Below are positions 177 through 37,195 of a stretch of 64,000 nucleotides of DNA, in pieces. Position numbers and translations under genes: made by a program. The notes beneath the pieces were generated by a model. It saw nothing but the letters and a program-made list of their open reading frames with translations. It did not search any database and was not told where the DNA came from. This DNA comes from Saccostrea echinata. Taxonomy: Eukaryota. Positions within the stretch are counted from its first letter, which is position 1; each line of letters begins with the position of its first letter. The DNA lies in the NCBI RefSeq assembly GCF_033153115.1, contig NW_026889779.1, positions 16,988,001 through 17,052,000 on the forward strand, given 5' to 3'.

Positions 177-257
177 CTGAAAATATACAACTGACACAAA
201 ATTAGTACAAATTCAAAACAATGAAACAAATCGAAGAAATTCATCAACACTACATAC

Positions 258-530: not shown

Positions 531-633
531 CTGTCAATTGAGAGTCGAGAGGTCCAAGACTGATACGGTCAACATTAATCGCTAGCGAGGAAAAGATCAA
601 GAAAGGCTACAAGAAGTCGAGTCTGAATCTTAC

Positions 634-699
634 CGCATCTTCTCATGATGGCTGCTGTTGGCATCCGGGTCGGCCAGGAACGAAAAACCTCCTCTCCTG
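634..699 (-). other. Array cassette e5 (63 or 66 nt, NAGNAG acceptor)
   Basis: Acceptor tttgatgtcttggttttgctttgtTAGCAG|G; donor GCG|GTAAGA. Confidence 0.72.
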
Positions 700-844
700 C
701 TAACAAAGCAAAACCAAGACATCAAAGTTACTGCATAGAGTTATCAGAATTCAGCATATGCAAAGAGCAAAGTTAAGATGTCCGTAACACAGGCACAAAG
801 TAATGAAAGTGGACAGAGTGCAATGTGTGCACGTTGCGACTTAC

Positions 845-942
845 CCTCACGTCTGGGATTGGCCGCAGTCCATCACAGAACTCCTGCCGGCAGGTGACGG
901 TCTGCTCTCTCTTCTGCGGAACCAGGCCAGTCTAACCCGTAC
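845..942 (-). other. Array cassette e4 (98 nt)
   Basis: Acceptor tttgacctgtaaacttctttgttaaCAG|G; donor AGG|GTAAGT; stops in all three frames. Confidence 0.75.
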
Positions 943-1051
943 CTGTTAACAAAGAAGTTTACAGGTCAAAACCAAAGTAACACTCCCCCAACACAGAATG
1001 AGTAACAAAAGTCCACAGAGTGCAAGATGTACAGATGGCATGTCTCATTAC

Positions 1052-1158
1052 CTTCAATGCTTGGGTGGGCTGCAGTACATCCCTGAACTCTTTGCACTCC
1101 CTCTGGCAGGCCGAAGTGCGCACTTCATCTCGGAATCCACAACAGCCTAATCCGGAAC
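1052..1158 (-). other. Array cassette e3 (107 nt)
   Basis: Acceptor tttgacttctgcacctttggtgtttaCAG|G; donor AAG|GTAATG. Confidence 0.75.
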
Positions 1159-1264
1159 CTGTAAACACCAAAGGTGCAGAAGTCAAAGAACTGTGCAAAG
1201 TCTGATGAAAAGACTAGACATAGAGACAGTGCACAGAGTGCAGGGCGTGCACAATGTATCTTAC

Positions 1265-1372
1265 CAACCTTGGCTCTGCCGCAGTTGACCTCTGAACTCT
1301 CAGCACTCTTGCTTTTCAGCTGAGGGTCTCCTCTTCAGAGCTGGAGGTAGAGGGCTGCACTACGCTGCATCT
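1265..1372 (-). other. Array cassette e2 (108 nt)
   Basis: Acceptor cttgatgtcttgtctttctaccgTAG|A; donor TTG|GTAAGA; stops in all three frames. Confidence 0.7.
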
Positions 1373-1475
1373 CTACGGTAGAAAGACAAGACATCAAGAG
1401 AGGTGGCGATCTTCATGTGGTGAGAATCAGAACACAAATCAAAGCAGTTAGTACAGGTTTAAACTTCAATCTTAC

Positions 1476-1565
1476 CCTCTCTTCGATGGTTGGCTGCAGT
1501 CGATCCCTGCTCACCAGAATGCTGCTGTACGTCACAGTGGGACTGACGCTTGCCTAACCATTTTC
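1476..1565 (-). other. Array cassette e1 (90 nt; unit-1 coordinates, repeats every 1593 bp)
   Basis: Acceptor tttgacctcccgactttctgtgtgtttCAG|G; donor AGG|GTAAGA. Confidence 0.75.
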
Positions 1566-10500: not shown

Positions 10501-13500
10501 CTGTTAACAAAGAAGTTTACAGGTCAAAACCAAAGTAACACTCCCCCAACACAGAATGAGTAACAAAAGTCCACAGAGTGCAAGATGTACAGATGGCATG
10601 TCTCATTACCTTCAATGCTTGGGTGGGCTGCAGTACATCCCTGAACTCTTTGCACTCCCTCTGGCAGGCCGAAGTGCGCACTTCATCTCGGAATCCACAA
10701 CAGCCTAATCCGGAACCTGTAAACACCAAAGGTGCAGAAGTCAAAGAACTGTGCAAAGGCTGATGAAAAGACTAGACATAGAGACAGTGCACAGAGTGCA
10801 GGGCGTGCACAATGTATCTTACCAACCTTGGCTCTGCCGCAGTTGACCTCTGAACTCTCAGCACTCTTGCTTTTCAGCTGAGGGTCTCCTCTTCAGAGCT
10901 GGAGGTAGAGGGCTGCACTACGCTGCATCTCTACGGTAGAAAGACAAGACATCAAGAGAGGTGGCGATCTTCATGCGGTGAGAATCAGAACACAAATCAA
11001 AGCAGTTAGTACAGGTTTAAACTTCAATCTTACCCTCTCTTCGATGGTTGGCTGCAGTCGATCCCTGCTCACCAGAATGCTGCTGTACGTCACAGTGGGA
11101 CTGACGCTTGCCTAACCATTTTCCTGAAACACACAGAAAGTCGGGAGGTCAAATGAGCACCCTTGCTGCTTTGATCAAGTTATAATGCACAACAGGGATC
11201 CAAAATAGCTACAAAAGCAGATTGTTACTCACCGCTTTGGCCAATGTTGGCCGCCGTACATAACTGGGCATCTTCATCTGTGTGTAGGCCGGCCTTCTTC
11301 CTTCCGCGTCGTCCCTGCTCCGAGTCCCTGAAAATATACAACTGACACAAAATTAGTACAAATTCAAAACAATGAAACAAATCGAAGAAATTCATCAACA
11401 CTACATACAACAAATTTAGTGGAAAAAGAAGCTAGTAGGTGAAGACAGTTACATGGGGAAAGGGCATAAGGGAGTTAAGGGGGTGGGGATGGTTAGTCAT
11501 GTTAGATTAGGGGGAGTGGATAGGAGACAGGAAAGAGAGAGAACAGAATCAATAGAATTAATTCAAAATGCTTCTCTATTAGGCTTCCTGGTTGCGGAAT
11601 TGGATCCTGCTTGCTTCCACTTCTGCTGGGCTGTGCTGGGCTCAGGTGGGCTCTGCTGGGCTGTGCTGCTTGCTGTGCATCCTGTCAATTGAGAGTCGAG
11701 AGGTCCAAGACTGATACGGTCAACATTAATCGCTAGCGAGGAAAAGATCAAGAAAGGCTACAAGAAGTCGAGTCTGAATCTTACCGCATCTTCTCATGAT
11801 GGCTGCTGTTGGCATCCGGGTCGGCCAGGAACGAAAAACCTCCTCTCCTGCTAACAAAGCAAAACCAAGACATCAAAGTTACTGCATAGAGTTATCAGAA
11901 TTCAGCATATGCAAAGAGCAAAGTTAAGATGTCCGTAACACAGGCACAAAGTAATGAAAGTGGACAGAGTGCAATGTGTGCACGTTGCGACTTACCCTCA
12001 CGTCTGGGATTGGCCGCAGTCCATCACAGAACTCCTGCCGGCAGGTGACGGTCTGCTCTCTCTTCTGCGGAACCAGGCCAGTCTAACCCGTACCTGTTAA
12101 CAAAGAAGTTTACAGGTCAAAACCAAAGTAACACTCCCCCAACACAGAATGAGTAACAAAAGTCCACAGAGTGCAAGATGTACAGATGGCATGTCTCATT
12201 ACCTTCAATGCTTGGGTGGGCTGCAGTACATCCCTGAACTCTTTGCACTCCCTCTGGCAGGCCGAAGTGCGCACTTCATCTCGGAATCCACAACAGCCTA
12301 ATCCGGAACCTGTAAACACCAAAGGTGCAGAAGTCAAAGAACTGTGCAAAGGCTGATGAAAAGACTAGACATAGAGACAGTGCACAGAGTGCAGGGCGTG
12401 CACAATGTATCTTACCAACCTTGGCTCTGCCGCAGTTGACCTCTGAACTCTCAGCACTCTTGCTTTTCAGCTGAGGGTCTCCTCTTCAGAGCTGGAGGTA
12501 GAGGGCTGCACTACGCTGCATCTCTACGGTAGAAAGACAAGACATCAAGAGAGGTGGCGATCTTCATGCGGTGAGAATCAGAACACAAATCAAAGCAGTT
12601 AGTACAGGTTTAAACTTCAATCTTACCCTCTCTTCGATGGTTGGCTGCAGTCGATCCCTGCTCACCAGAATGCTGCTGTACGTCACAGTGGGACTGACGC
12701 TTGCCTAACCATTTTCCTGAAACACACAGAAAGTCGGGAGGTCAAATGAGCACCCTTGCTGCTTTGATCAAGTTATAATGCACAACAGGGATCCAAAATA
12801 GCTACAAAAGCAGATTGTTACTCACCGCTTTGGCCAATGTTGGCCGCCGTACATAACTGGGCATCTTCATCTGTGTGTAGGCCGGCCTTCTTCCTTCCGC
12901 GTCGTCCCTGCTCCGAGTCCCTGAAAATATACAACTGACACAAAATTAGTACAAATTCAAAACAATGAAACAAATCGAAGAAATTCATCAACACTACATA
13001 CAACAAATTTAGTGGAAAAAGAAGCTAGTAGGTGAAGACAGTTACATGGGGAAAGGGCATAAGGGAGTTAAGGGGGTGGGGATGGTTACTCATGTTAGAT
13101 TAGGGGGAGTGGATAGGAGACAGGAAAGAGAGAGAACAGAATCAATAGAATTAATTCAAAATGCTTCTCTATTAGGCTTCCTGGTTGCGGAATTGGATCC
13201 TGCTTGCTTCCACTTCTGCTGGGCTGTGCTGGGCTCAGGTGGGCTCTGCTGGGCTGTGCTGCTTGCTGTGCATCCTGTCAATTGAGAGTCGAGAGGTCCA
13301 AGACTGATACGGTCAACATTAATCGCTAGCGAGGAAAAGATCAAGAAAGGCTACAAGAAGTCGAGTCTGAATCTTACCGCATCTTCTCATGATGGCTGCT
13401 GTTGGCATCCGGGTCGGCCAGGAACGAAAAACCTCCTCTCCTGCTAACAAAGCAAAACCAAGACATCAAAGTTACTGCATAGAGTTATCAGAATTCAGCA

Positions 13501-16500
13501 TATGCAAAGAGCAAAGTTAAGATGTCCGTAACACAGGCACAAAGTAATGAAAGTGGACAGAGTGCAATGTGTGCACGTTGCGACTTACCCTCACGTCTGG
13601 GATTGGCCGCAGTCCATCACAGAACTCCTGCCGGCAGGTGACGGTCTGCTCTCTCTTCTGCGGAACCAGGCCAGTCTAACCCGTACCTGTTAACAAAGAA
13701 GTTTACAGGTCAAAACCAAAGTAACACTCCCCCAACACAGAATGAGTAACAAAAGTCCACAGAGTGCAAGATGTACAGATGGCATGTCTCATTACCTTCA
13801 ATGCTTGGGTGGGCTGCAGTACATCCCTGAACTCTTTGCACTCCCTCTGGCAGGCCGAAGTGCGCACTTCATCTCGGAATCCACAACAGCCTAATCCGGA
13901 ACCTGTAAACACCAAAGGTGCAGAAGTCAAAGAACTGTGCAAAGTCTGATGAAAAGACTAGACATAGAGACAGTGCACAGAGTGCAGGGCGTGCACAATG
14001 TATCTTACCAACCTTGGCTCTGCCGCAGTTGACCTCTGAACTCTCAGCACTCTTGCTTTTCAGCTGAGGGTCTCCTCTTCAGAGCTGGAGGTAGAGGGCT
14101 GCACTACGCTGCATCTCTACGGTAGAAAGACAAGACATCAAGAGAGGTGGCGATCTTCATGTGGTGAGAATCAGAACACAAATCAAAGCAGTTAGTACAG
14201 GTTTAAACTTCAATCTTACCCTCTCTTCGATGGTTGGCTGCAGTCGATCCCTGCTCACCAGAATGCTGCTGTACGTCACAGTGGGACTGACGCTTGCCTA
14301 ACCATTTTCCTGAAACACACAGAAAGTCGGGAGGTCAAATGAGCACCCTTGCTGCTTTGATCAAGTTATAATGCACAACAGGGATCCAAAATAGCTACAA
14401 AAGCAGATTGTTACTCACCGCTTTGGCCAATGTTGGCCGCCGTACATAACTGGGCATCTTCATCTGTGTGTAGGCCGGCCTTCTTCCTTCCGCGTCGTCC
14501 CTGCTCCGAGTCCCTGAAAATATACAACTGACACAAAATTAGTACAAATTCAAAACAATGAAACAAATCGAAGAAATTCATCAACACTACATACAACAAA
14601 TTTAGTGGAAAAAGAAGCTAGTAGGTGAAGACAGTTACATGGGGAAAGGGCATAAGGGAGTTAAGGGGGTGGGGATGGTTAGTCATGTTAGATTAGGGGG
14701 AGTGGATAGGAGACAGGAAAGAGAGAGAACAGAATCAATAGAATTAATTCAAAATGCTTCTCTATTAGGCTTCCTGGTTGCGGAATTGGATCCTGCTTGC
14801 TTCCACTTCTGCTGGGCTGTGCTGGGCTCAGGTGGGCTCTGCTGGGCTGTGCTGCTTGCTGTGCATCCTGTCAATTGAGAGTCGAGAGGTCCAAGACTGA
14901 TACGGTCAACATTAATCGCTAGCGAGGAAAAGATCAAGAAAGGCTACAAGAAGTCGAGTCTGAATCTTACCGCATCTTCTCATGATGGCTGCTGTTGGCA
15001 TCCGGGTCGGCCAGGAACGAAAAACCTCCTCTCCTGCTAACAAAGCAAAACCAAGACATCAAAGTTACTGCATAGAGTTATCAGAATTCAGCATATGCAA
15101 AGAGCAAAGTTAAGATGTCCGTAACACAGGCACAAAGTAATGAAAGTGGACAGAGTGCAATGTGTGCACGTTGCGACTTACCCTCACGTCTGGGATTGGC
15201 CGCAGTCCATCACAGAACTCCTGCCGGCAGGTGACGGTCTGCTCTCTCTTCTGCGGAACCAGGCCAGTCTAACCCGTACCTGTTAACAAAGAAGTTTACA
15301 GGTCAAAACCAAAGTAACACTCCCCCAACACAGAATGAGTAACAAAAGTCCACAGAGTGCAAGATGTACAGATGGCATGTCTCATTACCTTCAATGCTTG
15401 GGTGGGCTGCAGTACATCCCTGAACTCTTTGCACTCCCTCTGGCAGGCCGAAGTGCGCACTTCATCTCGGAATCCACAACAGCCTAATCCGGAACCTGTA
15501 AACACCAAAGGTGCAGAAGTCAAAGAACTGTGCAAAGGCTGATGAAAAGACTAGACATAGAGACAGTGCACAGAGTGCAGGGCGTGCACAATGTATCTTA
15601 CCAACCTTGGCTCTGCCGCAGTTGACCTCTGAACTCTCAGCACTCTTGCTTTTCAGCTGAGGGTCTCCTCTTCAGAGCTGGAGGTAGAGGGCTGCACTAC
15701 GCTGCATCTCTACGGTAGAAAGACAAGACATCAAGAGAGGTGGCGATCTTCATGCGGTGAGAATCAGAACACAAATCAAAGCAGTTAGTACAGGTTTAAA
15801 CTTCAATCTTACCCTCTCTTCGATGGTTGGCTGCAGTCGATCCCTGCTCACCAGAATGCTGCTGTACGTCACAGTGGGACTGACGCTTGCCTAACCATTT
15901 TCCTGAAACACACAGAAAGTCGGGAGGTCAAATGAGCACCCTTGCTGCTTTGATCAAGTTATAATGCACAACAGGGATCCAAAATAGCTACAAAAGCAGA
16001 TTGTTACTCACCGCTTTGGCCAATGTTGGCCGCCGTACATAACTGGGCATCTTCATCTGTGTGTAGGCCGGCCTTCTTCCTTCCGCGTCGTCCCTGCTCC
16101 GAGTCCCTGAAAATATACAACTGACACAAAATTAGTACAAATTCAAAACAATGAAACAAATCGAAGAAATTCATCAACACTACATACAACAAATTTAGTG
16201 GAAAAAGAAGCTAGTAGGTGAAGACAGTTACATGGGGAAAGGGCATAAGGGAGTTAAGGGGGTGGGGATGGTTAGTCATGTTAGATTAGGGGGAGTGGAT
16301 AGGAGACAGGAAAGAGAGAGAACAGAATCAATAGAATTAATTCAAAATGCTTCTCTATTAGGCTTCCTGGTTGCGGAATTGGATCCTGCTTGCTTCCACT
16401 TCTGCTGGGCTGTGCTGGGCTCAGGTGGGCTCTGCTGGGCTGTGCTGCTTGCTGTGCATCCTGTCAATTGAGAGTCGAGAGGTCCAAGACTGATACGGTC

Positions 16501-19500
16501 AACATTAATCGCTAGCGAGGAAAAGATCAAGAAAGGCTACAAGAAGTCGAGTCTGAATCTTACCGCATCTTCTCATGATGGCTGCTGTTGGCATCCGGGT
16601 CGGCCAGGAACGAAAAACCTCCTCTCCTGCTAACAAAGCAAAACCAAGACATCAAAGTTACTGCATAGAGTTATCAGAATTCAGCATATGCAAAGAGCAA
16701 AGTTAAGATGTCCGTAACACAGGCACAAAGTAATGAAAGTGGACAGAGTGCAATGTGTGCACGTTGCGACTTACCCTCACGTCTGGGATTGGCCGCAGTC
16801 CATCACAGAACTCCTGCCGGCAGGTGACGGTCTGCTCTCTCTTCTGCGGAACCAGGCCAGTCTAACCCGTACCTGTTAACAAAGAAGTTTACAGGTCAAA
16901 ACCAAAGTAACACTCCCCCAACACAGAATGAGTAACAAAAGTCCACAGAGTGCAAGATGTACAGATGGCATGTCTCATTACCTTCAATGCTTGGGTGGGC
17001 TGCAGTACATCCCTGAACTCTTTGCACTCCCTCTGGCAGGCCGAAGTGCGCACTTCATCTCGGAATCCACAACAGCCTAATCCGGAACCTGTAAACACCA
17101 AAGGTGCAGAAGTCAAAGAACTGTGCAAAGGCTGATGAAAAGACTAGACATAGAGACAGTGCACAGAGTGCAGGGCGTGCACAATGTATCTTACCAACCT
17201 TGGCTCTGCCGCAGTTGACCTCTGAACTCTCAGCACTCTTGCTTTTCAGCTGAGGGTCTCCTCTTCAGAGCTGGAGGTAGAGGGCTGCACTACGCTGCAT
17301 CTCTACGGTAGAAAGACAAGACATCAAGAGAGGTGGCGATCTTCATGCGGTGAGAATCAGAACACAAATCAAAGCAGTTAGTACAGGTTTAAACTTCAAT
17401 CTTACCCTCTCTTCGATGGTTGGCTGCAGTCGATCCCTGCTCACCAGAATGCTGCTGTACGTCACAGTGGGACTGACGCTTGCCTAACCATTTTCCTGAA
17501 ACACACAGAAAGTCGGGAGGTCAAATGAGCACCCTTGCTGCTTTGATCAAGTCATAATGCACAACAGGGATCCAAAATAGCTACAAAAGCAGATTGTTAC
17601 TCACCGCTTTGGCCAATGTTGGCCGCCGTACATAACTGGGCATCTTCATCTGTGTGTAGGCCGGCCTTCTTCCTTCCGCGTCGTCCCTGCTCCGAGTCCC
17701 TGAAAATATACAACTGACACAAAATTAGTACAAATTCAAAACAATGAAACAAATCGAAGAAATTCATCAACACTACATACAACAAATTTAGTGGAAAAAG
17801 AAGCTAGTAGGTGAAGACAGTTACATGGGGAAAGGGCATAAGGGAGTTAAGGGGGTGGGGATGGTTACTCATGTTAGATTAGGGGGAGTGGATAGGAGAC
17901 AGGAAAGAGAGAGAACAGAATCAATAGAATTAATTCAAAATGCTTCTCTATTAGGCTTCCTGGTTGCGGAATTGGATCCTGCTTGCTTCCACTTCTGCTG
18001 GGCTGTGCTGGGCTCAGGTGGGCTCTGCTGGGCTGTGCTGCTTGCTGTGCATCCTGTCAATTGAGAGTCGAGAGGTCCAAGACTGATACGGTCAACATTA
18101 ATCGCTAGCGAGGAAAAGATCAAGAAAGGCTACAAGAAGTCGAGTCTGAATCTTACCGCATCTTCTCATGATGGCTGCTGTTGGCATCCGGGTCGGCCAG
18201 GAACGAAAAACCTCCTCTCCTGCTAACAAAGCAAAACCAAGACATCAAAGTTACTGCATAGAGTTATCAGAATTCAGCATATGCAAAGAGCAAAGTTAAG
18301 ATGTCCGTAACACAGGCACAAAGTAATGAAAGTGGACAGAGTGCAATGTGTGCACGTTGCGACTTACCCTCACGTCTGGGATTGGCCGCAGTCCATCACA
18401 GAACTCCTGCCGGCAGGTGACGGTCTGCTCTCTCTTCTGCGGAACCAGGCCAGTCTAACCCGTACCTGTTAACAAAGAAGTTTACAGGTCAAAACCAAAG
18501 TAACACTCCCCCAACACAGAATGAGTAACAAAAGTCCACAGAGTGCAAGATGTACAGATGGCATGTCTCATTACCTTCAATGCTTGGGTGGGCTGCAGTA
18601 CATCCCTGAACTCTTTGCACTCCCTCTGGCAGGCCGAAGTGCGCACTTCATCTCGGAATCCACAACAGCCTAATCCGGAACCTGTAAACACCAAAGGTGC
18701 AGAAGTCAAAGAACTGTGCAAAGGCTGATGAAAAGACTAGACATAGAGACAGTGCACAGAGTGCAGGGCGTGCACAATGTATCTTACCAACCTTGGCTCT
18801 GCCGCAGTTGACCTCTGAACTCTCAGCACTCTTGCTTTTCAGCTGAGGGTCTCCTCTTCAGAGCTGGAGGTAGAGGGCTGCACTACGCTGCATCTCTACG
18901 GTAGAAAGACAAGACATCAAGAGAGGTGGCGATCTTCATGCGGTGAGAATCAGAACACAAATCAAAGCAGTTAGTACAGGTTTAAACTTCAATCTTACCC
19001 TCTCTTCGATGGTTGGCTGCAGTCGATCCCTGCTCACCAGAATGCTGCTGTACGTCACAGTGGGACTGACGCTTGCCTAACCATTTTCCTGAAACACACA
19101 GAAAGTCGGGAGGTCAAATGAGCACCCTTGCTGCTTTGATCAAGTTATAATGCACAACAGGGATCCAAAATAGCTACAAAAGCAGATTGTTACTCACCGC
19201 TTTGGCCAATGTTGGCCGCCGTACATAACTGGGCATCTTCATCTGTGTGTAGGCCGGCCTTCTTCCTTCCGCGTCGTCCCTGCTCCGAGTCCCTGAAAAT
19301 ATACAACTGACACAAAATTAGTACAAATTCAAAACAATGAAACAAATCGAAGAAATTCATCAACACTACATACAACAAATTTAGTGGAAAAAGAAGCTAG
19401 TAGGTGAAGACAGTTACATGGGGAAAGGGCATAAGGGAGTTAAGGGGGTGGGGATGGTTACTCATGTTAGATTAGGGGGAGTGGATAGGAGACAGGAAAG

Positions 19501-22500
19501 AGAGAGAACAGAATCAATAGAATTAATTCAAAATGCTTCTCTATTAGGCTTCCTGGTTGCGGAATTGGATCCTGCTTGCTTCCACTTCTGCTGGGCTGTG
19601 CTGGGCTCAGGTGGGCTCTGCTGGGCTGTGCTGCTTGCTGTGCATCCTGTCAATTGAGAGTCGAGAGGTCCAAGACTGATACGGTCAACATTAATCGCTA
19701 GCGAGGAAAAGATCAAGAAAGGCTACAAGAAGTCGAGTCTGAATCTTACCGCATCTTCTCATGATGGCTGCTGTTGGCATCCGGGTCGGCCAGGAACGAA
19801 AAACCTCCTCTCCTGCTAACAAAGCAAAACCAAGACATCAAAGTTACTGCATAGAGTTATCAGAATTCAGCATATGCAAAGAGCAAAGTTAAGATGTCCG
19901 TAACACAGGCACAAAGTAATGAAAGTGGACAGAGTGCAATGTGTGCACGTTGCGACTTACCCTCACGTCTGGGATTGGCCGCAGTCCATCACAGAACTCC
20001 TGCCGGCAGGTGACGGTCTGCTCTCTCTTCTGCGGAACCAGGCCAGTCTAACCCGTACCTGTTAACAAAGAAGTTTACAGGTCAAAACCAAAGTAACACT
20101 CCCCCAACACAGAATGAGTAACAAAAGTCCACAGAGTGCAAGATGTACAGATGGCATGTCTCATTACCTTCAATGCTTGGGTGGGCTGCAGTACATCCCT
20201 GAACTCTTTGCACTCCCTCTGGCAGGCCGAAGTGCGCACTTCATCTCGGAATCCACAACAGCCTAATCCGGAACCTGTAAACACCAAAGGTGCAGAAGTC
20301 AAAGAACTGTGCAAAGGCTGATGAAAAGACTAGACATAGAGACAGTGCACAGAGTGCAGGGCGTGCACAATGTATCTTACCAACCTTGGCTCTGCCGCAG
20401 TTGACCTCTGAACTCTCAGCACTCTTGCTTTTCAGCTGAGGGTCTCCTCTTCAGAGCTGGAGGTAGAGGGCTGCACTACGCTGCATCTCTACGGTAGAAA
20501 GACAAGACATCAAGAGAGGTGGCGATCTTCATGCGGTGAGAATCAGAACACAAATCAAAGCAGTTAGTACAGGTTTAAACTTCAATCTTACCCTCTCTTC
20601 GATGGTTGGCTGCAGTCGATCCCTGCTCACCAGAATGCTGCTGTACGTCACAGTGGGACTGACGCTTGCCTAACCATTTTCCTGAAACACACAGAAAGTC
20701 GGGAGGTCAAATGAGCACCCTTGCTGCTTTGATCAAGTTATAATGCACAACAGGGATCCAAAATAGCTACAAAAGCAGATTGTTACTCACCGCTTTGGCC
20801 AATGTTGGCCGCCGTACATAACTGGGCATCTTCATCTGTGTGTAGGCCGGCCTTCTTCCTTCCGCGTCGTCCCTGCTCCGAGTCCCTGAAAATATACAAC
20901 TGACACAAAATTAGTACAAATTCAAAACAATGAAACAAATCGAAGAAATTCATCAACACTACATACAACAAATTTAGTGGAAAAAGAAGCTAGTAGGTGA
21001 AGACAGTTACATGGGGAAAGGGCATAAGGGAGTTAAGGGGGTGGGGATGGTTAGTCATGTTAGATTAGGGGGAGTGGATAGGAGACAGGAAAGAGAGAGA
21101 ACAGAATCAATAGAATTAATTCAAAATGCTTCTCTATTAGGCTTCCTGGTTGCGGAATTGGATCCTGCTTGCTTCCACTTCTGCTGGGCTGTGCTGGGCT
21201 CAGGTGGGCTCTGCTGGGCTGTGCTGCTTGCTGTGCATCCTGTCAATTGAGAGTCGAGAGGTCCAAGACTGATACGGTCAACATTAATCGCTAGCGAGGA
21301 AAAGATCAAGAAAGGCTACAAGAAGTCGAGTCTGAATCTTACCGCATCTTCTCATGATGGCTGCTGTTGGCATCCGGGTCGGCCAGGAACGAAAAACCTC
21401 CTCTCCTGCTAACAAAGCAAAACCAAGACATCAAAGTTACTGCATAGAGTTATCAGAATTCAGCATATGCAAAGAGCAAAGTTAAGATGTCCGTAACACA
21501 GGCACAAAGTAATGAAAGTGGACAGAGTGCAATGTGTGCACGTTGCGACTTACCCTCACGTCTGGGATTGGCCGCAGTCCATCACAGAACTCCTGCCGGC
21601 AGGTGACGGTCTGCTCTCTCTTCTGCGGAACCAGGCCAGTCTAACCCGTACCTGTTAACAAAGAAGTTTACAGGTCAAAACCAAAGTAACACTCCCCCAA
21701 CACAGAATGAGTAACAAAAGTCCACAGAGTGCAAGATGTACAGATGGCATGTCTCATTACCTTCAATGCTTGGGTGGGCTGCAGTACATCCCTGAACTCT
21801 TTGCACTCCCTCTGGCAGGCCGAAGTGCGCACTTCATCTCGGAATCCACAACAGCCTAATCCGGAACCTGTAAACACCAAAGGTGCAGAAGTCAAAGAAC
21901 TGTGCAAAGGCTGATGAAAAGACTAGACATAGAGACAGTGCACAGAGTGCAGGGCGTGCACAATGTATCTTACCAACCTTGGCTCTGCCGCAGTTGACCT
22001 CTGAACTCTCAGCACTCTTGCTTTTCAGCTGAGGGTCTCCTCTTCAGAGCTGGAGGTAGAGGGCTGCACTACGCTGCATCTCTACGGTAGAAAGACAAGA
22101 CATCAAGAGAGGTGGCGATCTTCATGCGGTGAGAATCAGAACACAAATCAAAGCAGTTAGTACAGGTTTAAACTTCAATCTTACCCTCTCTTCGATGGTT
22201 GGCTGCAGTCGATCCCTGCTCACCAGAATGCTGCTGTACGTCACAGTGGGACTGACGCTTGCCTAACCATTTTCCTGAAACACACAGAAAGTCGGGAGGT
22301 CAAATGAGCACCCTTGCTGCTTTGATCAAGTCATAATGCACAACAGGGATCCAAAATAGCTACAAAAGCAGATTGTTACTCACCGCTTTGGCCAATGTTG
22401 GCCGCCGTACATAACTGGGCATCTTCATCTGTGTGTAGGCCGGCCTTCTTCCTTCCGCGTCGTCCTTGCTCCGAGTCCCTGAAAATATACAACTGACACA

Positions 22501-25500
22501 AAATTAGTACAAATTCAAAACAATGAAACAAATCGAAGAAATTCATCAACACTACATACAACAAATTTAGTGGAAAAAGAAGCTAGTAGGTGAAGACAGT
22601 TACATGGGGAAAGGGCATAAGGGAGTTAAGGGGGTGGGGATGGTTACTCATGTTAGATTAGGGGGAGTGGATAGGAGACAGGAAAGAGAGAGAACAGAAT
22701 CAATAGAATTAATTCAAAATGCTTCTCTATTAGGCTTCCTGGTTGCGGAATTGGATCCTGCTTGCTTCCACTTCTGCTGGGCTGTGCTGGGCTCAGGTGG
22801 GCTCTGCTGGGCTGTGCTGCTTGCTGTGCATCCTGTCAATTGAGAGTCGAGAGGTCCAAGACTGATACGGTCAACATTAATCGCTAGCGAGGAAAAGATC
22901 AAGAAAGGCTACAAGAAGTCGAGTCTGAATCTTACCGCATCTTCTCATGATGGCTGATGTTGGCATCCGGGTCGGCCAGGAACGAAAAACCTCCTCTCCT
23001 GCTAACAAAGCAAAACCAAGACATCAAAGTTACTGCATAGAGTTATCAGAATTCAGCATATGCAAAGAGCAAAGTTAAGATGTCCGTAACACAGGCACAA
23101 AGTAATGAAAGTGGACAGAGTGCAATGTGTGCACGTTGCGACTTACCCTCACGTCTGGGATTGGCCGCAGTCCATCACAGAACTCCTGCCGGCAGGTGAC
23201 GGTCTGCTCTCTCTTCTGCGGAACCAGGCCAGTCTAACCCGTACCTGTTAACAAAGAAGTTTACAGGTCAAAACCAAAGTAACACTCCCCCAACACAGAA
23301 TGAGTAACAAAAGTCCACAGAGTGCAAGATGTACAGATGGCATGTCTCATTACCTTCAATGCTTGGGTGGGCTGCAGTACATCCCTGAACTCTTTGCACT
23401 CCCTCTGGCAGGCCGAAGTGCGCACTTCATCTCGGAATCCACAACAGCCTAATCCGGAACCTGTAAACACCAAAGGTGCAGAAGTCAAAGAACTGTGCAA
23501 AGGCTGATGAAAAGACTAGACATAGAGACAGTGCACAGAGTGCAGGGCGTGCACAATGTATCTTACCAACCTTGGCTCTGCCGCAGTTGACCTCTGAACT
23601 CTCAGCACTCTTGCTTTTCAGCTGAGGGTCTCCTCTTCAGAGCTGGAGGTAGAGGGCTGCACTACGCTGCATCTCTACGGTAGAAAGACAAGACATCAAG
23701 AGAGGTGGCGATCTTCATGCGGTGAGAATCAGAACACAAATCAAAGCAGTTAGTACAGGTTTAAACTTCAATCTTACCCTCTCTTCGATGGTTGGCTGCA
23801 GTCGATCCCTGCTCACCAGAATGCTGCTGTACGTCACAGTGGGACTGACGCTTGCCTAACCATTTTCCTGAAACACACAGAAAGTCGGGAGGTCAAATGA
23901 GCACCCTTGCTGCTTTGATCAAGTTATAATGCACAACAGGGATCCAAAATAGCTACAAAAGCAGATTGTTACTCACCGCTTTGGCCAATGTTGGCCGCCG
24001 TACATAACTGGGCATCTTCATCTGTGTGTAGGCCGGCCTTCTTCCTTCCGCGTCGTCCCTGCTCCGAGTCCCTGAAAATATACAACTGACACAAAATTAG
24101 TACAAATTCAAAACAATGAAACAAATCGAAGAAATTCATCAACACTACATACAACAAATTTAGTGGAAAAAGAAGCTAGTAGGTGAAGACAGTTACATGG
24201 GGAAAGGGCATAAGGGAGTTAAGGGGGTGGGGATGGTTAGTCATGTTAGATTAGGGGGAGTGGATAGGAGACAGGAAAGAGAGAGAACAGAATCAATAGA
24301 ATTAATTCAAAATGCTTCTCTATTAGGCTTCCTGGTTGCGGAATTGGATCCTGCTTGCTTCCACTTCTGCTGGGCTGTGCTGGGCTCAGGTGGGCTCTGC
24401 TGGGCTGTGCTGCTTGCTGTGCATCCTGTCAATTGAGAGTCGAGAGGTCCAAGACTGATACGGTCAACATTAATCGCTAGCGAGGAAAAGATCAAGAAAG
24501 GCTACAAGAAGTCGAGTCTGAATCTTACCGCATCTTCTCATGATGGCTGCTGTTGGCATCCGGGTCGGCCAGGAACGAAAAACCTCCTCTCCTGCTAACA
24601 AAGCAAAACCAAGACATCAAAGTTACTGCATAGAGTTATCAGAATTCAGCATATGCAAAGAGCAAAGTTAAGATGTCCGTAACACAGGCACAAAGTAATG
24701 AAAGTGGACAGAGTGCAATGTGTGCACGTTGCGACTTACCCTCACGTCTGGGATTGGCCGCAGTCCATCACAGAACTCCTGCCGGCAGGTGACGGTCTGC
24801 TCTCTCTTCTGCGGAACCAGGCCAGTCTAACCCGTACCTGTTAACAAAGAAGTTTACAGGTCAAAACCAAAGTAACACTCCCCCAACACAGAATGAGTAA
24901 CAAAAGTCCACAGAGTGCAAGATGTACAGATGGCATGTCTCATTACCTTCAATGCTTGGGTGGGCTGCAGTACATCCCTGAACTCTTTGCACTCCCTCTG
25001 GCAGGCCGAAGTGCGCACTTCATCTCGGAATCCACAACAGCCTAATCCGGAACCTGTAAACACCAAAGGTGCAGAAGTCAAAGAACTGTGCAAAGGCTGA
25101 TGAAAAGACTAGACATAGAGACAGTGCACAGAGTGCAGGGCGTGCACAATGTATCTTACCAACCTTGGCTCTGCCGCAGTTGACCTCTGAACTCTCAGCA
25201 CTCTTGCTTTTCAGCTGAGGGTCTCCTCTTCAGAGCTGGAGGTAGAGGGCTGCACTACGCTGCATCTCTATGGTAGAAAGACAAGACATCAAGAGAGGTG
25301 GCGATCTTCATGCGGTGAGAATCAGAACACAAATCAAAGCAGTTAGTACAGGTTTAAACTTCAATCTTACCCTCTCTTCGATGGTTGGCTGCAGTCGATC
25401 CCTGCTCACCAGAATGCTGCTGTACGTCACAGTGGGACTGACGCTTGCCTAACCATTTTCCTGAAACACACAGAAAGTCGGGAGGTCAAATGAGCACCCT

Positions 25501-28500
25501 TGCTGCTTTGATCAAGTTATAATGCACAACAGGGATCCAAAATAGCTACAAAAGCAGATTGTTACTCACCGCTTTGGCCAATGTTGGCCGCCGTACATAA
25601 CTGGGCATCTTCATCTGTGTGTAGGCCGGCCTTCTTCCTTCCGCGTCGTCCCTGCTCCGAGTCCCTGAAAATATACAACTGACACAAAATTAGTACAAAT
25701 TCAAAACAATGAAACAAATCGAAGAAATTCATCAACACTACATACAACAAATTTAGTGGAAAAAGAAGCTAGTAGGTGAAGACAGTTACATGGGGAAAGG
25801 GCATAAGGGAGTTAAGGGGGTGGGGATGGTTAGTCATGTTAGATTAGGGGGAGTGGATAGGAGACAGGAAAGAGAGAGAACAGAATCAATAGAATTAATT
25901 CAAAATGCTTCTCTATTAGGCTTCCTGGTTGCGGAATTGGATCCTGCTTGCTTCCACTTCTGCTGGGCTGTGCTGGGCTCAGGTGGGCTCTGCTGGGCTG
26001 TGCTGCTTGCTGTGCATCCTGTCAATTGAGAGTCGAGAGGTCCAAGACTGATACGGTCAACATTAATCGCTAGCGAGGAAAAGATCAAGAAAGGCTACAA
26101 GAAGTCGAGTCTGAATCTTACCGCATCTTCTCATGATGGCTGCTGTTGGCATCCGGGTCGGCCAGGAACGAAAAACCTCCTCTCCTGCTAACAAAGCAAA
26201 ACCAAGACATCAAAGTTACTGCATAGAGTTATCAGAATTCAGCATATGCAAAGAGCAAAGTTAAGATGTCCGTAACACAGGCACAAAGTAATGAAAGTGG
26301 ACAGAGTGCAATGTGTGCACGTTGCAACTTACCCTCACGTCTGGGATTGGCCGCAGTCCATCACAGAACTCCTGCCGGCAGGTGACGGTCTGCTCTCTCT
26401 TCTGCGGAACCAGGCCAGTCTAACCCGTACCTGTTAACAAAGAAGTTTACAGGTCAAAACCAAAGTAACACTCCCCCAACACAGAATGAGTAACAAAAGT
26501 CCACAGAGTGCAAGATGTACAGATGGCATGTCTCATTACCTTCAATGCTTGGGTGGGCTGCAGTACATCCCTGAACTCTTTGCACTCCCTCTGGCAGGCC
26601 GAAGTGCGCACTTCATCTCGGAATCCACAACAGCCTAATCCGGAACCTGTAAACACCAAAGGTGCAGAAGTCAAAGAACTGTGCAAAGGCTGATGAAAAG
26701 ACTAGACATAGAGACAGTGCACAGAGTGCAGGGCGTGCACAATGTATCTTACCAACCTTGGCTCTGCCGCAGTTGACCTCTGAACTCTCAGCACTCTTGC
26801 TTTTCAGCTGAGGGTCTCCTCTTCAGAGCTGGAGGTAGAGGGCTGCACTACGCTGCATCTCTACGGTAGAAAGACAAGACATCAAGAGAGGTGGCGATCT
26901 TCATGCGGTGAGAATCAGAACACAAATCAAAGCAGTTAGTACAGGTTTAAACTTCAATCTTACCCTCTCTTCGATGGTTGGCTGCAGTCGATCCCTGCTC
27001 ACCAGAATGCTGCTGTACGTCACAGTGGGACTGACGCTTGCCTAACCATTTTCCTGAAACACACAGAAAGTCGGGAGGTCAAATGAGCACCCTTGCTGCT
27101 TTGATCAAGTTATAATGCACAACAGGGATCCAAAATAGCTACAAAAGCAGATTGTTACTCACCGCTTTGGCCAATGTTGGCCGCCGTACATAACTGGGCA
27201 TCTTCATCTGTGTGTAGGCCGGCCTTCTTCCTTCCGCGTCGTCCCTGCTCCGAGTCCCTGAAAATATACAACTGACACAAAATTAGTACAAATTCAAAAC
27301 AATGAAACAAATCGAAGAAATTCATCAACACTACATACAACAAATTTAGTGGAAAAAGAAGCTAGTAGGTGAAGACAGTTACATGGGGAAAGGGCATAAG
27401 GGAGTTAAGGGGGTGGGGATGGTTACTCATGTTAGATTAGGGGGAGTGGATAGGAGACAGGAAAGAGAGAGAACAGAATCAATAGAATTAATTCAAAATG
27501 CTTCTCTATTAGGCTTCCTGGTTGCGGAATTGGATCCTGCTTGCTTCCACTTCTGCTGGGCTGTGCTGGGCTCAGGTGGGCTCTGCTGGGCTGTGCTGCT
27601 TGCTGTGCATCCTGTCAATTGAGAGTCGAGAGGTCCAAGACTGATACGGTCAACATTAATTGCTAGCGAGGAAAAGATCAAGAAAGGCTACAAGAAGTCG
27701 AGTCTGAATCTTACCGCATCTTCTCATGATGGCTGCTGTTGGCATCCGGGTCGGCCAGGAACGAAAAACCTCCTCTCCTGCTAACAAAGCAAAACCAAGA
27801 CATCAAAGTTACTGCATAGAGTTATCAGAATTCAGCATATGCAAAGAGCAAAGTTAAGATGTCCGTAACACAGGCACAAAGTAATGAAAGTGGACAGAGT
27901 GCAATGTGTGCACGTTGCGACTTACCCTCACGTCTGGGATTGGCCGCAGTCCATCACAGAACTCCTGCCGGCAGGTGACGGTCTGCTCTCTCTTCTGCGG
28001 AACCAGGCCAGTCTAACCCGTACCTGTTAACAAAGAAGTTTACAGGTCAAAACCAAAGTAACACTCCCCCAACACAGAATGAGTAACAAAAGTCCACAGA
28101 GTGCAAGATGTACAGATGGCATGTCTCATTACCTTCAATGCTTGGGTGGGCTGCAGTACATCCCTGAACTCTTTGCACTCCCTCTGGCAGGCCGAAGTGC
28201 GCACTTCATCTCGGAATCCACAACAGCCTAATCCGGAACCTGTAAACACCAAAGGTGCAGAAGTCAAAGAACTGTGCAAAGGCTGATGAAAAGACTAGAC
28301 ATAGAGACAGTGCACAGAGTGCAGGGCGTGCACAATGTATCTTACCAACCTTGGCTCTGCCGCAGTTGACCTCTGAACTCTCAGCACTCTTGCTTTTCAG
28401 CTGAGGGTCTCCTCTTCAGAGCTGGAGGTAGAGGGCTGCACTACGCTGCATCTCTACGGTAGAAAGACAAGACATCAAGAGAGGTGGCGATCTTCATGCG

Positions 28501-29904
28501 GTGAGAATCAGAACACAAATCAAAGCAGTTAGTACAGGTTTAAACTTCAATCTTACCCTCTCTTCGATGGTTGGCTGCAGTCGATCCCTGCTCACCAGAA
28601 TGCTGCTGTACGTCACAGTGGGACTGACGCTTGCCTAACCATTTTCCTGAAACACACAGAAAGTCGGGAGGTCAAATGAGCACCCTTGCTGCTTTGATCA
28701 AGTTATAATGCACAACAGGGATCCAAAATAGCTACAAAAGCAGATTGTTACTCACCGCTTTGGCCAATGTTGGCCGCCGTACATAACTGGGCATCTTCAT
28801 CTGTGTGTAGGCCGGCCTTCTTCCTTCCGCGTCGTCCCTGCTCCGAGTCCCTGAAAATATACAACTGACACAAAATTAGTACAAATTCAAAACAATGAAA
28901 CAAATCGAAGAAATTCATCAACACTACATACAACAAATTTAGTGGAAAAAGAAGCTAGTAGGTGAAGACAGTTACATGGGGAAAGGGCATAAGGGAGTTA
29001 AGGGGGTGGGGATGGTTAGTCATGTTAGATTAGGGGGAGTGGATAGGAGACAGGAAAGAGAGAGAACAGAATCAATAGAATTAATTCAAAATGCTTCTCT
29101 ATTAGGCTTCCTGGTTGCGGAATTGGATCCTGCTTGCTTCCACTTCTGCTGGGCTGTGCTGGGCTCAGGTGGGCTCTGCTGGGCTGTGCTGCTTGCTGTG
29201 CATCCTGTCAATTGAGAGTCGAGAGGTCCAAGACTGATACGGTCAACATTAATCGCTAGCGAGGAAAAGATCAAGAAAGGCTACAAGAAGTCGAGTCTGA
29301 ATCTTACCGCATCTTCTCATGATGGCTGCTGTTGGCATCCGGGTCGGCCAGGAACGAAAAACCTCCTCTCCTGCTAACAAAGCAAAACCAAGACATCAAA
29401 GTTACTGCATAGAGTTATCAGAATTCAGCATATGCAAAGAGCAAAGTTAAGATGTCCGTAACACAGGCACAAAGTAATGAAAGTGGACAGAGTGCAATGT
29501 GTGCACGTTGCGACTTACCCTCACGTCTGGGATTGGCCGCAGTCCATCACAGAACTCCTGCCGGCAGGTGACGGTCTGCTCTCTCTTCTGCGGAACCAGG
29601 CCAGTCTAACCCGTACCTGTTAACAAAGAAGTTTACAGGTCAAAACCAAAGTAACACTCCCCCAACACAGAATGAGTAACAAAAGTCCACAGAGTGCAAG
29701 ATGTACAGATGGCATGTCTCATTACCTTCAATGCTTGGGTGGGCTGCAGTACATCCCTGAACTCTTTGCACTCCCTCTGGCAGGCCGAAGTGCGCACTTC
29801 ATCTCGGAACCCACAACAGCCTAATCCGGAACCTGTAAACACCAAAGGTGCAGAAGTCAAAGAGCTGTGACCTAACAGAAGAATGAAGTTGGAAGTCACT
29901 CGGA

Positions 29905-30350
29905 AGGAAAGTCAGAAAATTAGGACACATTTAAAAAGCTCCTGCTAATTTGAAATAATGTTTAGAGAAAAAATTACAAACAGATTCATCTTCTCTCTGC
30001 TAAACATAAAACAATTAGAGATATGAAGGTTAGAATTTTAATACAGTTGAATAGGTCTCATAAAGTTGTACCTGTTTTGAAGTTTAATAAAAATATGAAC
30101 ATTTTCTTTGAATCTAAGTTAAATGAAAATGGAGAATATTTTGGACAAGGTTATAGGGAATGTCAAAGTCAGAAAATTATGACACAGGTTAATAAAATTT
30201 AATAAAATGGGGAATATTGAAGTGAAGGCCATGGGAAAGGTCGAAGTTCAGAAAATAATGAGTTTAATAAAATGGGAAATATTGAGGTCAAGGCAGTAAA
30301 AGTCAAAGTTCAGAAAATAATAACACAATTCAATAAAATTGGGAAAAGCT
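29905..30350. repeat. Degenerate AT-rich short repeats next to the array end
   Basis: Recurring gtcaaagt(t)cagaaaat-a--acaca ... aataaaatggg-aatattga near 29908, 30162, 30240 and 30302. Confidence 0.6.
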
Positions 30351-30878
30351 GCTACTAATATGTATTAGTTTATGATATGATAAAAAAAAAAATTTAAAGA
30401 GTTACTTTGAAGCTGAGCTTAACACACACACACACACACAAAATGAAATGACTTTGCTCTTCTCCCTCAAAAAAAAAACCCCTCTTGTATGTTCTTAAGA
30501 GTCATTTATGAATAGAAATATATATGAAGGATTTTTTTCAGCTTCGCAAAAAAGCCCGAATCTGAAATATTTTTAGTGAGCATGAAACACTCCCGCCCTT
30601 CTGAGAAAAAAGAAATTCTGTATCTCTTCATTTTTGCTTTTTGATATTGCATGGGGATTTTGAGAAAAGGAGACATAGAAAGAGAGAAAACTAAAGTGTT
30701 GATAACATCACTTAAACACCTATTGTTATCCACTTACAGGAAAAGGTACTTTTCACAAACAAGTGGTTTTAAACTGTTTGGTCAACTGATTGTTCGCTTA
30801 ACTTTACTGTTAAACCCCACTGTAGGTTTTCCTCTTGCAACACATTTCACAGGAATAGCAAGGACTTATAATATAGAT

Positions 30879-31000
30879 ACTCACTAAAAAGAATTCCTCC
30901 GCTTTATAAGTAATTTACATCTTAAAATCTCCAAAATCAGTGAGTTAAATACTGCCCGCCATTACATTGAGAACACTGCTCAGGGTATACACCGGAAGTG
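30879..31000 (-). promoter_or_regulatory. Candidate Pol II promoter and non-coding first exon, module 1
   Basis: ETS consensus ACCGGAAGTG at 30991-31000; YY1-like ATGGCG on the minus strand at 30956-30963; donor GTGAGT at 30879-30884. Confidence 0.5.
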
Positions 31001-31306
31001 TGTTCAAATGACTTGATGAATACATTAGGGGTTAGATAGAAAAAATGAAATCTAGAATGAATATTCTTAGATATGTCAACTGTTACTCATAAAATAAGTG
31101 ATTTTTTGTTTGGGTGTGATTTTTTTTTAAATTTTGTGATCGTTGAGAGAGAGAGAGAGATTTTACAGCTGATGAAATCTTGCTTCTATGACCTTGAGTA
31201 GTAACATTGGGTACTTTTGCTTCTGTTACCTTACGGTCTCTTTTGAAGGATTGTCCTATTATTTATTCACACGAAAGATGAATATATTTAAAAAAAAAAG
31301 GGGGGG

Positions 31307-31375
31307 GTCGCATAATATTTCGTCCGCCTCGTTTAAAGGTCCGGGGGGACCTAATACGATAACACATAAGGTCCA
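31307..31375 (+). mobile_element. Solo copy of the terminal repeat of the 34038-37273 element
   Basis: gtcgcataatatttcgtccgcctcgtttaaaggtccggggggacctaatacgata matches 34044 onward. Confidence 0.7.
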
Positions 31376-31954
31376 CCAGGATATTATGTGCCTGTCAATA
31401 CATTTGAAAACATATCAATACATTTTATAATCTTTATTTACAACAATGATCAAATATGTTTAAAGATATTATTAATAAAATATTATCAATGGTTTTATGT
31501 AGACATTGGCTCTGCAAAATACAATGAAATCAGTTCAGATTCACCGGCTAAAAGATTGAATTTTTGGCGATTCATGTTTTAAAATCTTATTGACCCAGCA
31601 ACTACTAAACGCACTACCAGCATTTTGTAATTCGCTTTAAAATGAAAAGAGAAAAATGAACAGCGATTGTTTTTTTTGCCGTCTAAAACAAAAAATGTAT
31701 GTGAACTAAAAAAAAAAGAAAAGAAAAAAGAAGTTAAAAGTGTCAACATGAGAATCCACAAAACTATTCCATCAAAGCGTTAATTTGAAACTTTGGACAA
31801 ATCTCAGTTATTATCTTTATCTATAAACCGTTTACACATAAACGATCGAGCTTTCTTTACAATTTTCAATGACCACTCGTATGATTGTTCGTTTTATTTT
31901 ACGGTTAAGCCCACTAGGTTTTCTCTGTTAGCATGAAAAAAAAAATTATAAAAT

Positions 31955-32089
31955 GATTACTCAAAAAACTTTCACTTATTTTTTTTTTTTAGAAGTTAGT
32001 ATCTTGAAATCTTCAGAATAAGTGAAAACTGAAAAAAAGAAGCCCTGCTCAAATATGTAATAAGTCTACTGTTCACGATACTGGAAGTG
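31955..32089 (-). promoter_or_regulatory. Decayed paralog of the promoter module (module 2)
   Basis: ACTGGAAGTG at 32080-32089 (CpG lost); actcaa in place of actcac; shares ttagtatcttgaaa with module 3. Confidence 0.35.
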
Positions 32090-33011
32090 TACGTACGAAT
32101 GCGCATTTTGAAATAGACTTTGAGGTTAACAACATGACTTAAAATAATAAAATTACATATTTTTTTCTCTTATTAAATTTTTTTTTGGATAGGAGTTATT
32201 TGTAACTAAATCATTATAATTTTTATTAAAACCAGTCTATAAAAACGAATTCGATGTGGAGATCGACCAATATCCACAATGTAATATTGATAACTTTGTA
32301 TTTTTTTTTAAAACCTGCCACTGTAAAATACACTAAAATCCACTTAGATTCAGTAGTTGCATTGACACGCTTGAATGATTCTAGACATAATCAGATCTCG
32401 GTGTTTGGTAAACCCGCGGCAAGCTTCTGAATTCACTACTGATATTTGTAAATTGATGCAATGTTTAACATTCATAACATTCTACATGTATAAGAAAAAT
32501 AACAAAGTTGTTTTAATCTTCTACCAAAAAAAAAACAAACAAAAAAACAAAAAAAATCAAACTTTTGTGATAATAAAAGATACACGAATTGATGGCAGAA
32601 ATTCTTTCTGAAAATGTTTCTCTAGCTGACCAATGAAAACCCTTACAAGTCTTTGAAAACCACAAGAATTCTTCGATTCCAGTTTAATGTATGATTCTTT
32701 GTTAATTTCCTTGCCAGGCCCACGGTCGTACGCTGGATTACACCCCTAGCTCCCCACTTTTCTTCTGATATAATCTTTTTGCCGTTCATTTAGTTTGGAC
32801 GTTGAAAATTAATGCGAGTCCATTCCGTGAGCGTGAGCGTATTCCGTGAAGTTTATTTCAAGTACCTTTTTTAAAATTTGTTTTTCAATTTTATATATAT
32901 ATATTTCACCCGTCCATGGAACTGGCCACTCCTATATATGATTATATCATTATTATCATTTCCTATTTTACAATACATTTCATATGTAAAACAACAAATT
33001 TTACTTTAAAT

Positions 33012-33144
33012 ACTCACAAAGAATTATGTTTCTCCCCTTTATGTGCAATTAGTATCTTGAAAGAAACACATGTATCTTGAAAAGGACTGCGCGCCATTTA
33101 TACAAATATTTACTAAGAGTAGTGTTCACAACTTACCGGAAGTG
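33012..33144 (-). promoter_or_regulatory. Candidate Pol II promoter and first exon, module 3
   Basis: ACCGGAAGTG at 33135-33144; CGCCATTT (YY1-like) at 33092-33099; donor GTGAGT at 33012-33017. Confidence 0.5.
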
Positions 33145-34037
33145 TGTACGAACCTTTTAATATTATAAGATAAAATAATAAGCAAATCTGTGGCGAATAT
33201 TTGAAATTAATAAGTCATTTGTACCTTAAATAAAAATATATAAATTAATGTTTTCTTCTGTGTAAGTTTTAAGTACTGTTGTGATCAACCCGGAGAGAGA
33301 GAGAAGTACAATTAGGCCGATAGGTTACATATATACATATGTATACCTTTTATCTTAATTAAATGATGGTATTTTGACTACTTATTGTTTACTTTAAGTG
33401 TGTACAACAAACAAATGCAAGGAAAATTTCGGTCTGACGACATTTGTTCATTCAACGAATTATCTGATTTTGTAACAGACTAAAAATATTTATAATTATT
33501 ACTGATTATCTTATGATCAAAACTGTTTATATTAATGTCCTAAAAGAAAAAAAAATCACCATTGTGATAAAAGCAATCCCAATGTTACCCAATAGTAGGC
33601 CCATTCTAACGCTTAGGGGGCAAGTGGGGCGCCCCAACTTTTTTTTTTGAATATACATGTAGTCTTTTGCTATCATTTTTATATTATTTTTTTTCAATGA
33701 CGATCCCCTCCCCCTTTTTTTTTGCTGCTGCATTGTTAGAACCTCAAATTCCAGCAATTAGGGAAAATGTAACCCCCCCCCACACACACACACACAATAG
33801 GATTTTCGAGTTCGAGAAGGTAAGTTTCTTTTTTCGGCATCCCCCCTCCCCACTTTTCAAATTGATGTACGGACTTGGACATAATTTTAAAGGAAATACC
33901 CTCATTGGGATCTTGCACAATTATAACTCAATTTTTGTGAGGAAATTTAATTGTTTAAGTACCAATTAAAACCCCAAACACAAGTTCCTGTGTAAAATTC
34001 AAGTCAAGTTCTTTATTATTATCGGCTGCATGAGAGA

Positions 34038-37156: not shown

Positions 37157-37195
<39 letters not shown>

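Follow-up and report, generated by a model that had tools for sequence, protein, structure and literature searches.

Upstream GABP/ETS and downstream YY1 sites are a documented promoter layout, found for example in mammalian ribosomal-protein genes, and the accessible text of PMC554972 agrees with an initial annotation of the DNA treated here, which had called it a common TATA-less arrangement. Among non-coding RNAs, Gomafu carries exonic UACUAAC repeats that bind SF1, and binding is weaker with variants of the repeat (accessible part of PMC3116199); SF1 and QKI compete for ACUAA, according to the portion of PMC13004596 that is available. Here we describe a locus of the oyster Saccostrea echinata that recalls both systems. 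The window, i.e. the whole stretch of 64,000 nucleotides that was analysed (C30:16988001-17052000, C30 being contig NW_026889779.1), contains a minus-strand tandem array of exon-intron units and, upstream of it, three promoter-like modules. We consider it moderately probable that duplicated promoters, a long non-coding RNA (lncRNA) made from the array and a function of this RNA as a platform or decoy for SF1/Quaking belong together. The promoter layout itself is ordinary and the gene family is unusual.

Three promoter-like modules upstream of the array

From sequence alone, the initial annotation had described three diverged promoter/first-exon copies about 1.07 kb apart, with ETS sites at 30991, 32080 and 33135, pointing into the array. 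All motifs that it named are found at these places, and the homology of the copies is beyond chance. The features are as follows, from the distal module to the array.

32930..33310, minus strand: module 3 (distal), with (TC)n, the ETS site CACTTCCGGT at 33144-33135 and a TGAACA box
33114, minus strand: A of the initiator-like TTAGT of module 3, predicted start
33097-33092, minus strand: YY1 site ATGGCG of module 3
to 33018, minus strand: predicted first exon of module 3, followed by the donor GTGAGT at 33017-33012
31860..32240, minus strand: module 2 (decayed), ETS site altered to CACTTCCAGT, YY1 site gone, donor TTGAGT
30780..31160, minus strand: module 1 (array-proximal), with (TC)n, the ETS site at 31000-30991 and a TGAGCA box
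30968, minus strand: A of the initiator-like TCAAT of module 1, predicted start
30962-30957, minus strand: YY1 site ATGGCG of module 1, opening the frame MAGSI-stop
to 30885, minus strand: predicted first exon of module 1, followed by the donor GTGAGT at 30884-30879
30788..30817, minus strand: conserved first-intron element, family majority TAACGGTAAA...AACAAT; not a conserved acceptor
29833..30884, minus strand: predicted first intron between module 1 and the array, with a putative junction
1..29869, minus strand: tandem array of 1593-bp exon-intron units, 19 of them in the window

Within the 64 kb, ACCGGAAGTG is matched exactly at two places, 30991 and 33135, and the ETS position 32080 of module 2 reads ACTGGAAGTG. 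CGCCAT (ATGGCG on the minus strand) is located at 30957 and 33092 and ACTCAC (minus-strand GTGAGT) at 30879 and 33012; TTGTGATC is found at 31134 and 33279, followed by (GA)n in each case. The donors and (GA)n tracts described for modules 1 and 3 are therefore present, and copy 2 is decayed as described, having lost ETS site, YY1 site and donor. Module 2 retains the TGAACA box, the exon core and the intronic element, and module 3 is without the intronic TAAC.GTAAA element. ETS site and ATGGCG are kept in both modules 1 and 3, but their distance, given as 30-35 bp, is 38-43 bp in module 3. The short reading frame of the module 1 ATG had been read correctly. Starts are predicted at ~30968 and ~33114 because the initiator-like word falls between the box and the YY1 site, in agreement with the ~30970 and ~33110 guessed before. 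An alternative acceptor-like AG lies at 29872, at the array edge. The first-intron element is Myb- and Sox-like by consensus.

The modules are spaced 1089 and 1055 bp apart, close to the period first given, but only ~350 bp of them can be aligned, with 59-62% identity. BLAST matches module 1 to module 3 with E 1.5e-14 (61% over 360), module 1 to module 2 with E 1.2e-7 and module 2 to module 3 with E 2.3e-6. Local scores of 145, 124 and 102 compare with maxima of 61, 57 and 62 in 300 dinucleotide shuffles each, and of 54, 54 and 68 in 300 random window pieces; two pairs thus score at least twice the best of the shuffles and the third 1.6 times. Only one of six pairs of inter-module spacers aligns, and weakly (78 vs a shuffle maximum of 58). 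In the tree the three modules are 1.0-1.1 substitutions per site apart, and each is nearer to modules of other loci than to its neighbours. The closest relatives of module 1 are modules on contigs C9 and C10, loci which also retain a remnant of an upstream module and its flank. Because the spacers hardly align and the modules are so distant from each other and closer to other loci, we read them as products of an old multiplication and not of a recent 1.07-kb tandem triplication. A short dispersed repeat is present at 31295-31377, 34035-34136 and 37179-37280, one copy lying between modules 1 and 2.

A family of modules and arrays in the oyster genome

The initial annotation missed that the module belongs to a genome-wide family. 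Loci were gathered by searching the oyster's own genome with the modules and with an ETS..YY1 pattern, which gave 47 fetched loci on 13 contigs after apparent haplotype duplicates (C54:29.47M, C62:8.15M, C62:6.42M) and a non-family pattern match on C36 had been excluded. A profile finds 78 modules in these loci, with two to four modules at 24 of them, and has no match in the controls, which comprise 1.0 Mb of reversed and flanking sequence. Specifically, related exon-intron array units lie downstream on the same strand at 45/47 loci and on the opposite strand at none, the median gap between module and array being 3.2 kb. The two loci without an array are C30:4.55M and C22:16.61M; the latter sits ~40 kb from another family locus, on its upstream side. 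An array is missing from all 10 non-family ETS-YY1 matches that were fetched, and two of these open at least 100 codons from the YY1 ATG, like ordinary gene starts. The pattern ACTTCCGG N15-45 AATGGCGG occurs 34 times genome-wide vs once in the reversed control, and 23 of the 34 are family modules.

Motifs are retained well above background: TTCCGG in 41/78 modules (background 1.0%), the TGA(A/G)CA box in 60/78 (2.5%), ATGGCG for YY1 in 35/78 (0.3%) and a GTRAG donor in 61/78 (6.1%). The initiator-like word TCAGT stands between box and YY1 site in 19 of 58 modules vs 1.9% background, and TAACGG is found in 26/39 intronic elements. A small exon at ~30807-30738, through which splicing to the array had been proposed to run, is rejected as a conserved feature, as its acceptor reads AG in only 5 of the 39 modules carrying the conserved intronic element and GG in 28.

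Germline methylation depletes CpG. In the Pacific oyster, most methylation lies within genes and increases with expression (accessible text of PMC3840415). In the family, array-proximal modules and the sequence upstream of them have a CpG observed/expected ratio (o/e) of 0.7-0.9, which falls to 0.39 in the 500 bp behind them and is 0.33-0.52 thereafter. CpG is higher upstream than downstream at 44/47 loci, vs 28/47 for the GpC control, and it drops in 8/10 mutually non-homologous clusters. The predicted first intron in the window (29870-30780) has o/e 0.24. This fall behind the modules fits, as expected, the start of a methylated gene body, with methylation read from CpG depletion. Between the array (0.48) and the upstream kelch gene there is a CpG-rich zone at 31.3-38 kb (0.85-1.15), which argues against read-through from that gene. 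Taken together, three independent lines, namely the same-strand upstream position, the CpG step and the spliced minus-strand contigs described below, lend indirect support to the idea that the modules are minus-strand promoters with first exons feeding the array, and we regard this predicted role as quite probable.

One subfamily of arrays with a ~690-bp unit (C22:13.99-14.01M, C25:9.67-9.715M and C10:5.23-5.241M) is without modules within 30-50 kb upstream, so a module is not needed by every array. These arrays have very low CpG (o/e 0.02-0.2), a CpG step of their own and a different common upstream sequence; promoter replacement is probable there. A transposable element carrying the cassette was considered and rejected: module cassettes have no sharp common ends, terminal repeats or transposon coding domains (target-site duplications were not searched), upstream homology between loci stops at scattered distances, and 3' flanks are common to some loci only.

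The array RNA and its CUAAY-rich core

The array extends over C30:16964911-17017869 with 33 full units, which have 16 variable columns; units in the window are 99.7-100% identical. Across loci, unit length ranges from 515 to 1593 bp. Homology between units begins at 29869, 37 nt ahead of the exon start 29832, so the array does begin just before an intact acceptor, as first annotated. Beyond the full units there are degenerate exons of like kind, then a region of 21-nt repeats and AATAAA words; this terminal region (C30:16961240-16960960) has three paralogues and is common to 4 of 11 array ends compared. The unit nearest to the modules is composed as follows.

28346..29832, minus strand: span of unit 19, with six GT-AG introns, each spliced out in public contigs
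29832-29726, 29616-29519, 29370-29308, 29204-28756, 28646-28557 and 28453-28346, minus strand: exons of unit 19
28851..29094, minus strand: donor-less intron-like segment inside the 449-nt exon, with pyrimidine tracts and clustered CTAAY/ACTAAY

Splicing was examined in contigs assembled from four public runs, which presumably are RNA and come from at most two samples and two studies. Five junctions are found in 4/4 runs and the sixth in 3/4, including the unit-to-unit junction, and wherever the ends are given they are CT..AC, indicating minus-strand splicing. The stretch 29204-28756 is retained whole as a 449-nt exon. Of the runs listed as containing the modules, none is recorded as RNA. Contigs cover the bins over the predicted first exons scarcely or not at all, and none of the listed joints starts at 30885 or 33018; this is no evidence either way on the first-exon junction, as such contigs lose rare 5' ends (expected at 1/33 of unit depth). 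The unit-to-unit junction 28346->29832 would look like a back-splice, and circular RNA is possible. In run X4, a paralogue contig with a loose end at 29094 jumps from the end of a purine-rich part of the exon to the exon part that follows, a hint that splicing may skip the retained segment. The would-be donor at this place is GC or GT in all but one (GG) of 25 of the 27 parsed copies; among the fetched loci the source paralogue was not found and no genomic copy without the T-run was seen.

The array RNA is non-coding. A spliced unit of 915 nt is without a usable reading frame, no frame of exon 29616-29519 is free of stops, and the longest sense stop-to-stop run is 108 codons. Frames are not conserved among paralogues, those opened by the YY1 ATG encode 5-58 amino acids, and Pfam gave no match for two exon frames. 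A protein-coding array was rejected on these stops, unconserved frames and missing Pfam matches.

Across the family, what varies least is the core segment of ~245 nt, which has a strong acceptor and no donor consensus. It is found at 44/47 loci with 394 sense matches vs 1 antisense. CTAAY occurs 4.86 times per core segment vs 0.71 after shuffling, ACTAAY is present in 35/35 parsed core segments vs 0/42 neighbouring spliced introns, and 91% of 35 family segments have TACTAAY. Exact matches to the motif cluster number 639 genome-wide vs 0 in the control. No conserved fold was found in 14 windows of 20 representatives of the core, so it is sequence words, not structure, that are kept.

Two tandem BTB-BACK-Kelch genes (41711-44306 and 52552-55116, minus strand; Pfam BACK and Kelch) and an ABC-transporter-like gene (57300-64000, plus strand; weak ABC_membrane match, E 2e-4) are also present in the window. 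As the nearest upstream genes are the minus-strand kelch genes and the first plus-strand gene is ~24 kb off, a bidirectional promoter for a plus-strand gene was discarded. Inverted repeats of 44 nt at 60369-61427 surround a frame similar to the remnant of a Tc1/mariner-type transposase. Positions 39666-40283 and 58800-59340 hold minisatellites, one with a 33-bp repeat in an inverted arrangement and one with a 32-bp repeat.

Weighing the explanations and comparison with known systems

In the model that we favour, a single ETS-initiator-YY1-donor cassette was duplicated long ago to give the three modules, of which 1 and 3 would serve as alternative TATA-less RNA polymerase II promoters. Non-coding first exons of ~85-95 nt would be spliced into the 33-unit exon array, and the resulting lncRNA, presumably acting in the nucleus, may be a multivalent platform or decoy with dozens of sites for branch-point/STAR proteins (SF1, Quaking). 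As a working model by analogy the SF1/Quaking decoy appears likely, because the CUAAY core is retained and conserved and the branch-point repeats of Gomafu bind SF1; a decoy or scaffold role of the array RNA as such is put forward tentatively, with confidence somewhat short of even. A bolder and doubtful idea is that an oyster lineage possesses at least 50 lncRNA genes, tens of kilobases long and driven by housekeeping promoters, which together form an invertebrate, multi-locus sponge for splicing factors or a scaffold of nuclear bodies. It would be tunable by copy number, would have evolved independently of Gomafu and would have tandem cassettes as a second dosage dial. If this is true, amplification of a donor-less, branch-point-loaded intron has given each genome hundreds of sites at which SF1/Quaking can land.

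It is important to note the observations that weigh against this model. ETS site, YY1 site and donor occur together in just 25/78 modules (24/47 loci), ATGGCG is absent at nine single-module loci, and the motif counts are inflated by those loci that were found with the ETS-YY1 pattern. Loci are paralogues and not independent: there are 7 near-identical pairs, and 35/47 downstream pieces fall in one homology cluster. Module and array distances are weakly correlated (Mantel 0.12, 60/2000 permutations; 0.28, 86/2000 permutations, on 20 representatives); the closest core relatives of the window are the C9/C10 loci, as for module 1. A prospective test failed: three arrays found from the array side, those of the ~690-bp subfamily, were examined for 30-50 kb upstream and gave no module (0/3). 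For module 1 alone, CpG o/e is 0.50 and is based on 7 CpGs. The exon in the window has 0 TACTAAC, 5 CTAAY and 2 ACTAAY, and ACUAAY/CUAAY words are variants of the kind that weaken SF1 binding in Gomafu (PMC3116199, as far as its accessible part goes). Motif columns are better conserved than the rest (0.92 vs 0.76; 20 representatives, mean identity 69%), which speaks for the model, but they had been chosen on the majority line, and this choice favours them. Where transcription starts, the joining of the first exon and the binding of proteins are inferred.

The roughly equal conservation of exons, introns and segment on average (0.74-0.77) also speaks for the view that the arrays are a functionless, self-amplifying exon satellite, in which a decayed gene kept its housekeeping-type promoter, its exon-intron unit multiplied by unequal crossing-over and the whole was dispersed by segmental duplication, the motifs being there by descent. 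The near-identity of the window's units, a unit length that differs per locus and the many decayed modules agree with this. Against it, donors, acceptors and CTAAY words are conserved at 59-83% overall identity, the same core is present in every amplified unit examined, some arrays being little else, and module and array agree strictly in strand; we find it rather unlikely, but a serious rival. The same promoters could instead produce precursors of PIWI-interacting RNAs (piRNAs) or other small RNAs that are genic and poor in transposons; TAACGG in the intron would then be a Myb site. The Myb consensus and the parallel between A-MYB and pachytene piRNAs make the frequency of TAACGG in the intronic elements suggestive. 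That the non-coding loci are dispersed, number in the dozens, and have their own promoter and a single transcribed strand also fits. Numerous piRNA clusters specific to tissue and stage exist in oysters (accessible part of PMC6128900), but the mollusc clusters described there are marked by transposon content, whereas the arrays are self-derived exon repeats. Production of piRNAs needs neither precise splicing nor a conserved branch-point cluster, and five family motifs are absent from 5 supplementary files of that paper, a weak test as the species is likely another one. We judge this origin unlikely, though it too is a serious rival.

That the modules in the window are inactive, transcription of the array coming from a different start or from read-through, is suggested by the module-less subfamily and by module 2, which shows that copies decay. 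However, modules 1 and 3 are within the 25 copies having all three motifs, there is a CpG step at module 1, and a CpG-rich gap sets the upstream kelch gene apart, which makes this very unlikely. Finally, tandem short non-coding exon-intron units under one RNA polymerase II promoter resemble C19MC (PMC2691840, available text), so the arrays might host intronic microRNAs or small nucleolar RNAs. Rfam gave 0 matches in 9.5 kb at E<=1 and 0 in 6 paralogous loci, neither 107 windows nor 6 introns contained a long pre-microRNA-like stem, four paralogues lack a 43-nt stretch with which the best hairpin (z -4.3) overlaps, and there is no consensus fold; a host-gene role is highly improbable. The reading of the modules as promoters of a spliced lncRNA thus remains the one that we prefer.

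Literature on oyster arrays, lncRNAs, piRNA clusters and satellites, including the accessible text of PMC12506671, contains no description of the family that we could find; most subscription papers lie outside such a search, so an annotation may exist there. This multi-locus family of repeat-exon lncRNA genes is apparently undescribed. To our knowledge, functional lncRNAs are almost unknown in molluscs. At least 47 paralogues allow motif-level constraint to be read within one genome, and the family offers a direct test of repeated evolution of branch-point-decoy RNAs. It is also a warning, because masking of satellite DNA would hide loci of this kind.

Compared with described systems, the modules are like ETS/YY1 TATA-less promoters in their upstream ETS site, ATGGCG just past the predicted start, short first exon and preserved CpG. 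They differ from ETS/YY1 housekeeping promoters in heading a non-coding array and in being a 78-copy paralogous cassette, often with 2-4 copies in tandem; compared with the ribosomal-protein type they have an extra TGAACA box and an intronic TAACGG element, and no TCT-type initiator. FIRRE is likewise a multi-exon lncRNA made of repeats (RRD) proposed as RNA elements, but its repeats are confined to one locus, whereas the oyster repeat gene is a dispersed family of homogenised arrays (PMC4820808, accessible part). The C19MC host transcript shares with the array its tandem exon-intron units in one long non-coding RNA polymerase II transcript, and differs in the intronic hairpins and Rfam matches that the oyster arrays do not show (comparison limited to the available text of PMC2691840). 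Gomafu/MIAT is, like the oyster array, a spliced non-coding RNA with tandem branch-point-like words in an exon. It is a single-copy vertebrate gene with exact UACUAAC repeats, whereas the oyster family has clusters of ACUAAY/CUAAY in a whole donor-less segment, in every unit and at ~50 loci, and no sequence homology is claimed. Because the exon in the window is without exact UACUAAC, the oyster array is not a member of the Gomafu family.

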